A DNA stretch of 64,000 nucleotides, from the NCBI RefSeq assembly GCF_058153355.1, contig NZ_CM177019.1; one strand, 5' to 3'. This document shows, in pieces, positions 40,750 to 40,925 of the stretch (within the stretch, counting starts at the first letter, position 1; each line of letters starts with the position of its first letter). Both the position numbers and the translations under genes were made by a program. Under the pieces are notes generated by a model that saw only the letters and a program-made list of their open reading frames with translations, did no database searches and was not told where the DNA came from.

Positions 40750-40755
40750 TGAATG

Positions 40756-40782
40756 AAATGCCGGATCTTGTATCCGGCATTT
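40756..40782 (+). terminator. Rho-independent terminator of tsx
   Basis: AAATGCCGGAT-cttgt-ATCCGGCATTT hairpin right after tsx stop. Confidence 0.75.
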
Positions 40783-40812
40783 CAGATTGTTAACAACGTG
40801 CGCTTTGTTCAT

Positions 40813-40911
40813 GCCGGATGCGGCGTAAACGCCTTATCCGGCCTACAAAAGCACGTAAATTCAATACATTGCTGAGATTACTTAGGCCTGATAAGCGTAG
40901 CGCATCAGGCA
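40813..40911. repeat. REP/BIME palindromic repeat cluster (tsx-yajD intergenic)
   Basis: GCCGGATGCGGCGTAAACGCCTTATCCGGCCTACA and AGGCCTGATAAGCGTAGCGCATCAGGCA are REP-type units. Confidence 0.85.
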
Positions 40912-40925
40912 ATTTTGCGTTTTAA

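Follow-up and report, generated by a model that had tools for sequence, protein, structure and literature searches.

The convergent genes tsx and yajD, in the stretch of 64,000 nucleotides analysed here (the window), share a 3′ end that very probably consists of a terminator-like hairpin and one complete BIME-1 unit, the latter derived from the insertion of a single block and with roles that would follow from its class. The element is ordinary and already known. REP sequences and BIMEs have been described since the 1980s, and the Escherichia coli K-12 copy is catalogued as ‘REP37, Convergent, 430969-431066, yajD/tsx’ (supplement, bioRxiv 10.64898/2026.03.23.713779), an interval that coordinate transfer from K-12 places at 40812-40909 of the window. 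The RepRanger supplements do not list the tsx/yajD locus, no repeat feature is annotated there in RefSeq K-12 or in the other RefSeq records checked, and no mention of yajD, tsx and REP together was found in the literature searched. What can usefully be added to this otherwise minor finding is how far exactly the unit extends, where it sits in a T-run and in which lineages it is present or absent.

Layout of the tsx/yajD intergenic region

The neighbourhood of the element is that of E. coli, nrdR-yajI-tsx followed by the convergent yajD-secF-secD. Positions 40750-40925 make up the complete tsx/yajD intergenic region, 176 bp from stop codon to stop codon. The stop codon of tsx occupies 40747-40749 on the + strand, and its ATG was placed at 39865 from the length of the K-12 gene, 885 nt. 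Beyond the element yajD does run convergently, as had been described; it lies on the − strand and its TGA stop codon (40926-40928) is followed in the fold by 15 unpaired nucleotides and then by the Z1 stem. The features of the region and the basis of each are as follows.

39865-40749, + strand: tsx coding sequence, nucleoside-specific outer-membrane channel (end of the open reading frame at 40749; tsx in matching E. coli records)
40754-40784, + strand: tsx 3′ hairpin, a terminator-like stem-loop (inverted repeat and fold)
40783-40921, no strand: complete BIME-1 unit, 139 bp (presence/absence of the block and layout of paralogs; edges ±2 nt from T-runs)
40783-40812, no strand: left flanking motif CAGATTGTTAACAACGTGCGCTTTGTTCAT (conserved at paralogous copies)
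40813-40846, + strand: Y-type REP, REP-1 (consensus match, hairpin, inverted repeat)
40847-40881, no strand: long linker of the L type, 35 nt (homologous to the K-12 yaaX-yaaA linker)
40859-40871, + strand: IHF-like core ATTCAATACATTG (read from the sequence)
40882-40911, − strand: short Z-type REP, REP-2 or Z1, reading TGCCTGATGCGCTACGCTTATCAGGCCTAA on the − strand (short Z match, hairpin)
40912-40921, no strand: right flanking motif ATTTTGCGTT (comparison of paralogs)
40910-41102, + strand (tsx-sense): putative counterpart of a K-12 Rho site, antisense to yajD (coordinate transfer only)
40926-41273, − strand: yajD coding sequence, HNH nuclease family, convergent with tsx (open reading frame and annotation in matching E. 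coli records)

The intergenic region is far more structured than its shuffles on both strands, the 176 nt folding with −71.4 kcal/mol on the + strand and −68.3 kcal/mol on the − strand (z = −6.8 on each). Open reading frames of 40 codons overlap the BIME-1 element and should not be annotated as genes. An intrinsic terminator with a 13-bp stem and a T-run lies further along, between secF and yajD (41353-41382, − strand), so that a promoter of its own, or read-through, probably accounts for yajD transcription.

A terminator hairpin after tsx had been proposed, and a terminator-like one is found at 40754-40784, beginning 4 nt past the tsx stop codon. Its arms (40754-40766 and 40772-40784) form 13 bp with 100% complementarity around a loop of 5 nt and contain the GC core GCCGGAT/ATCCGGC; the stem-loop folds with −20 kcal/mol (z = −4.8), a value that none of 200 shuffles attained. 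The outermost 2 pairs make use of the first bases (CA) of the BIME unit, and the hairpin occurs alike in the allele that holds the BIME (filled) and in the allele that is devoid of it (empty). Sequences of the window type have the stem GCCGGAT/ATCCGGC as against GCCGGGA/TCCCGGC in those of the K-12 type, two inner pairs having changed on both sides with pairing kept (AU to GC and UA to AU; 95.4% of cells paired). Over only 5 sequences in 3 haplotype groups, this makes a modest case that compensatory substitutions maintain the stem. The tail of the hairpin is UUUCAGAUUGUU in the filled allele of the window and U6 in the BIME-less allele. A simple terminator scan calls the K-12 allele and misses both the window hairpin and the BIME-less allele, the U6 of the latter being overlooked because A-U pairs extend the stem.

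The tsx hairpin and the outer stem of the Y REP have the same arm sequences (ATGCCGGAT and TATCCGGC; 40758-40766 with 40811-40819, and 40771-40778 with 40835-40842), and the four arms could therefore pair crosswise. Hairpins of the AATGCCGG...CCGGCATT type adjoin BIMEs at yaaX-yaaA and at gcd-cueO too. The K-12 tsx hairpin is devoid of the Y arms, so that their identity in the window may be a coincidence or may reflect a target preference.

The BIME-1 unit is laid out as left flank, Y REP, 35-nt L linker, inverted Z1 REP and right flank, and alignment of its copies shows that it exceeds the two REPs, the conserved flanks belonging to the repeat. Paralogous copies came from chunks of K-12 and, with the left flank as the seed, from a metagenome scan. 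They repeat this layout, and the flanks, CAGATTGYTRACAACGTGCGCKTTGTTCA on the left and TTTGCGTTT(GTCATCAG) on the right, recur at three other loci, namely gcd-cueO, the locus of the L122 group and that of L159/L175; the left flank reads CAGATTGCTGACAACGTGCGCGTTGTTCAT at gcd-cueO and L122, and is partial at L159 and at 24.7 kb of the window. In paralogs the right flank has the form (G/A)(A/T)TTTGCGTTTGTCATCAG, and the tsx-yajD copy is without the GTCATCAG tail. The left flank also pairs with the start of the linker, which lengthens the Y hairpin to 78 nt (−34.2 kcal/mol, z −5.5).

REP-1 on its own forms a hairpin of −22.7 kcal/mol (z −4.5) with an internal loop, its arms being 86% complementary, and has its foot CTAC at 40843-40846, toward the linker, where the K-12 copy reads CAAC. 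REP-2 folds on the yajD-sense strand with −13.2 kcal/mol (z −2.5); its foot in the window (40882-40885) is TTAG and not GTAG, which is kept in K-12 and in E. albertii. The two REPs are inverted with respect to each other, with the CTAC and GTAG ends toward the linker and with centres of 10 nt and 5 nt, and no third REP is present inside the tsx/yajD intergenic region. By hand count the L linker is identical to the K-12 yaaX-yaaA linker at 27/35 positions, and it aligns with the linkers of other copies. The consensus for IHF binding is WATCAANNNNTTR. The IHF-like core in the linker, ATTCAATACATTG, fits it at 12/13 positions with one mismatch, a near-match of a kind that is common by chance; the gcd-cueO paralog has a perfect core, AATCAATGGATTG (13/13).

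Distribution and history of the 139-bp block

Of 5426 complete E. coli genomes, 3804 have the filled allele, defined as at least 80% cover of a 501-nt query spanning the region, and 1592 (~29%) have the contiguous empty allele. The latter include Nissle 1917 and O25b:H4-ST131 strains, which belong to phylogroup B2. The element had been taken for a typical backbone feature; it is an ordinary, catalogued one, but not a universal one, since about 29% of complete E. coli genomes are without the unit. Filled and empty intergenic regions measure 176 bp and 37 bp, respectively. The empty junction reads GGCATTTTTTATCAC and the filled one GGCATTT[CAGATTG...GCGTT]TTAATCAC, the 139-bp difference (40783-40921) starting exactly where the paralogs place the left edge of the repeat. 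The unit sits directly past the first three T’s in the T-run of a putative hairpin-plus-T6 terminator. In the type strain of E. albertii the site is filled, and its edges are the same.

Two inverted REPs and the spacer between them, present or absent as one 139-bp block, might be read as a REP doublet of the REPIN kind that is still being moved by the RAYT transposase, the two alleles then resulting from recent insertion or excision and not from old ancestry. In the paralogs the two ends of the unit are in part inverted copies of each other (TGACAACG on the left, CGTTTGTCA on the right), and RAYT of E. coli has been shown to cut and recombine BIMEs in vitro (PMC3333891). Current mobility is nevertheless very unlikely for this copy. 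E. albertii shares not only the insertion and its edges but also the truncated right flank, which argues for a single origin that is older than the split of the species or was spread by recombination. GTAG is required for RAYT binding and cleavage (PMC3333891), whereas each lineage has one REP without it, Z1 in the window (TTAG) and Y in K-12 (CAAC, that is GTTG); with one disabled REP in each lineage, ongoing mobility of the tsx-yajD copy is argued against. Moreover an additional substitution or indel sets the junctions apart from a clean empty site, and just two alleles, filled and empty, cover 5396/5426 genomes.

Under the preferred reading of one old block insertion, the 139-bp unit would have been inserted once, past the first three T’s of the putative terminator; it is now common to most E. 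coli and to E. albertii, and ST131/Nissle-type E. coli and Salmonella are without it. The 139-bp difference may have arisen by gain and then loss, or by gain and then transfer. Among outgroups, Salmonella arizonae and diarizonae have a spacer of 76-78 bp in which two plain hairpins but no REP are present, and Citrobacter species have REP-like units of their own at the tsx-yajD spacer. The outgroup scan recovered no E. fergusonii and no cryptic-clade Escherichia. In Kluyvera (L012, L034, L071, L082, L101 and L109) the tsx-yajD spacer is 480-497 bp long and contains a block that is well conserved across species.

By hand count the intergenic region of E. albertii agrees with that of the window at 166/176 positions (94%), as against no more than 86% identity over the final 300 nt of tsx. 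Either the repeat has been constrained or homogenised, it would seem, or the species have exchanged DNA here. The tsx hairpin and the first bases past the tsx stop codon are like those of E. albertii and unlike those of K-12. The segment 40600-41100 has ~94-95% identity to the majority of E. coli genomes, with 5083 records falling in the 90-95% band, and at least 99% identity to 17 records only, reaching 100% in a dog isolate from South Korea; it may belong to a divergent lineage or be a recombinant segment.

Class and naming of the repeat unit

Alignment with the REP classes Y, Z1 and Z2, which the preliminary description had suggested as a check, gave the following numbers of matching positions.

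REP-1 (40813-40846, + strand): 33/34 to Y, 27/36 to long Z, 27/34 to short Z
REP-2 (40882-40910, − strand): 26/34 to Y, 27/36 to long Z, 28/29 to short Z

REP-1 is therefore of class Y and REP-2 a short Z, and the two REPs in opposite, BIME-like orientation that had been described are borne out. The one mismatch of REP-1 to the Y consensus, GCCGGATGCGGCGTGAACGCCTTATCCGGCCTAC (quoted in PMC12306157), falls at a loop position. REP-2 likewise departs at a single position from the short Z unit GCCTGATGCGCTACGCTTATCAGGCCTAC, of which an exact copy stands at K-12 cueO-gcd, and for each of the two the chance expectation of such a match is 0.00 (in the window, from shuffles, for REP-1).

The BIMEs beside K-12 rayT and in the REP325 array are labelled Y/z2 in three papers (PMC3333891, Ton-Hoang et al.; PMC2817692, Nunvar et al.; PMC4550694, Qian et al.). 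As both carry the long Z, the long Z is z2 and by elimination the short Z would be z1. A figure legend in PMC3479197 dissents and labels the Z flanking rayT ‘z1’. The name z1 for the short Z also fits the arrangement of units in 250 kb of K-12 (blastn-short), where every long Z has a Y at a distance of 13-17 nt, often in a tandem array, and the short Z is seen only with a linker of ~35 nt. BIME-1 is defined as y plus z1 with a long, conserved L linker that often holds an IHF site, in single copy (PMC3333891; PMC2817692). Judged by the alignments and the layout, the tsx/yajD element is a single complete BIME-1, also called RIP or RIB. Of the partners ‘gyrase or IHF’ that had been proposed for it, IHF would therefore be the relevant one for the class (PMC3333891; PMC2817692); gyrase is tied to BIME-2 and not to BIME-1 (PMC2817692).

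A BIME-2 would equally offer a Y unit and, inverted with respect to it, a unit of the Z family, and gyrase had been named in the preliminary description. The element would then consist of Y and Z2 with short linkers, typically in tandem, and would serve mainly as a site of gyrase binding and cleavage. This is highly improbable, as the Z is of the short type (28/29) and not of the long type found in the rayT and REP325 arrays (27/36), the linker is 35 nt long and L-like as against 13-17 nt, and the element is single-copy. The class alignments contradict a BIME-2 identity, which was rejected. It is scarcely credible that the region, instead of being simply a repeat, encodes a small RNA related to naRNA4 or ES036: the Rfam matches that hint at this, naRNA4 (RF02564) on the Y unit and ES036 (RF02751) on the linker, reach 40.4 and 24.3 bits against gathering thresholds of 59.5 and 37.6, a scan of the intergenic region found no promoter-like site, and naRNA4 is itself a Y-l-Z2 BIME unit (PMC4550694), so that its match only restates the similarity of the REPs.

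The ES036/CssrF match extends over 40847-40889 (24.3 bits, E 0.03), and the family, listed as an sRNA, may itself derive from BIME-1 linkers.

Other BIME-1 copies, the IHF-binding REP doublets known as RIP or RIB, are like the window copy in the inverse Y and short Z, the L linker of ~35 nt, the IHF-like core and the flanks, while the window copy differs in one mismatch in the IHF core, in the Z1 foot TTAG in place of GTAG and in a right flank without the GTCATCAG tail. The BIME-2 arrays that flank rayT, or that form REP325/naRNA4 between yjdM and yjdN, have in common with it the Y unit, the inverse Y/Z arrangement and a role, presumed for the window copy, as a 3′-UTR terminator and stabiliser; unlike it, they have long Z units, linkers of 11-17 nt, tandem repetition and a link to gyrase and HU. 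The K-12 yaaX-yaaA element (Y, L, long Z) shares the L linker (27/35), the Y unit and the adjoining AATGCCGG...CCGGCATT hairpin, but its Z is long and it is without the CAGATTG...TTGTTCA left flank. Pseudomonas REPINs likewise combine two inverted REPs and a spacer into one unit in genomes with a RAYT gene, whereas the window copy gives no sign of recent movement and has, in each lineage, one REP without the RAYT tetranucleotide.

Proposed roles at the shared 3′ end, and other REP-like elements

To judge by the class of the element, the tsx hairpin would end tsx transcripts or would stabilise and protect them. Transcripts that read through it would meet the extended Y hairpin, which may block 3′-5′ exonucleases and slow RNA polymerase. 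Past the BIME, a Rho site may end tsx-sense transcription that runs antisense into yajD. The candidate at 40910-41102 corresponds to M_N10_406 of K-12 (430776-430968, − strand; ‘NusG plus’, ‘Proximal’; 1 nt from REP37), which was placed by an in vitro screen and lies on the tsx-sense strand (bioRxiv 10.64898/2026.03.23.713779). Transcripts of yajD would meet the Z1 hairpin first, 15 nt past the stop codon, with effects that are likewise expected to be protective and attenuating. This hairpin may also be near enough to the stop codon for terminating ribosomes to be impeded; a REP closer than 16 nt to a stop codon can reduce translation (PMC12306157). At the DNA level, the linker would offer a candidate site for bending by IHF between two cruciform-prone palindromes.

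A REP is present in about 30% of the convergent gene pairs of E. coli, and its presence correlates with higher expression of both partners. According to a recent preprint, what terminal REPs do varies with context, and they show no general link to longer mRNA half-lives. The stabilisation of mRNA that had been attributed to the element is a property of its class, which this copy may share.

A further proposal, tentative and on balance unlikely, is that the BIME-1 landed in the U-tract of a clean hairpin-plus-U6 terminator shared by tsx and yajD, and that filled strains consequently terminate tsx transcription more leakily and rely on attenuation by REP and Rho. Were it true, the ~70:29 split of E. 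coli into filled and empty strains would be a natural experiment, in which filled strains would transcribe yajD in antisense and would have a REP placed 15 nt from its stop codon. A measurable, lineage-specific difference would then be expected in the expression of YajD and of Tsx, a receptor for phage, colicin and nucleosides. The presence or absence of the block at a putative terminator, split as it is between major lineages, would in any case suit tests in the native context of REP effects on termination, mRNA decay and IHF binding.

Other REP-like elements were seen in the window and in the metagenome scan. At 62243-62330 of the window lies a single unit of the BIME-2 type, made up of a Y-like unit (62243-62276) with the variant stem GTCGGAT...ATCCGAC, a 16-nt linker and an inverted long Z (62293-62330). 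The stretch 24690-24800 holds a decayed BIME-1-like copy with a short Z (24706-24734) that has two stem changes, a linker of ~25 nt without an IHF core, a Y in degenerate form (24760-24785) and what is left of the GCGCTTTGTTCA flank. One metagenome contig, L184, combines a left flank of the BIME-1 type (ACAACGTGCGCTTTGTTCA) and a Y unit with a 12-nt linker and a long Z, and is thus a chimeric (‘atypical’) BIME. Finally, a stand-alone hairpin at 2860-2884 of the window, GCCGGATGCGGCTTGAGCATCCGGC, has a Y-type outer stem and no CTTATC/CTAC tail, by which it is classed as a REP-like terminator hairpin and not as a full REP.
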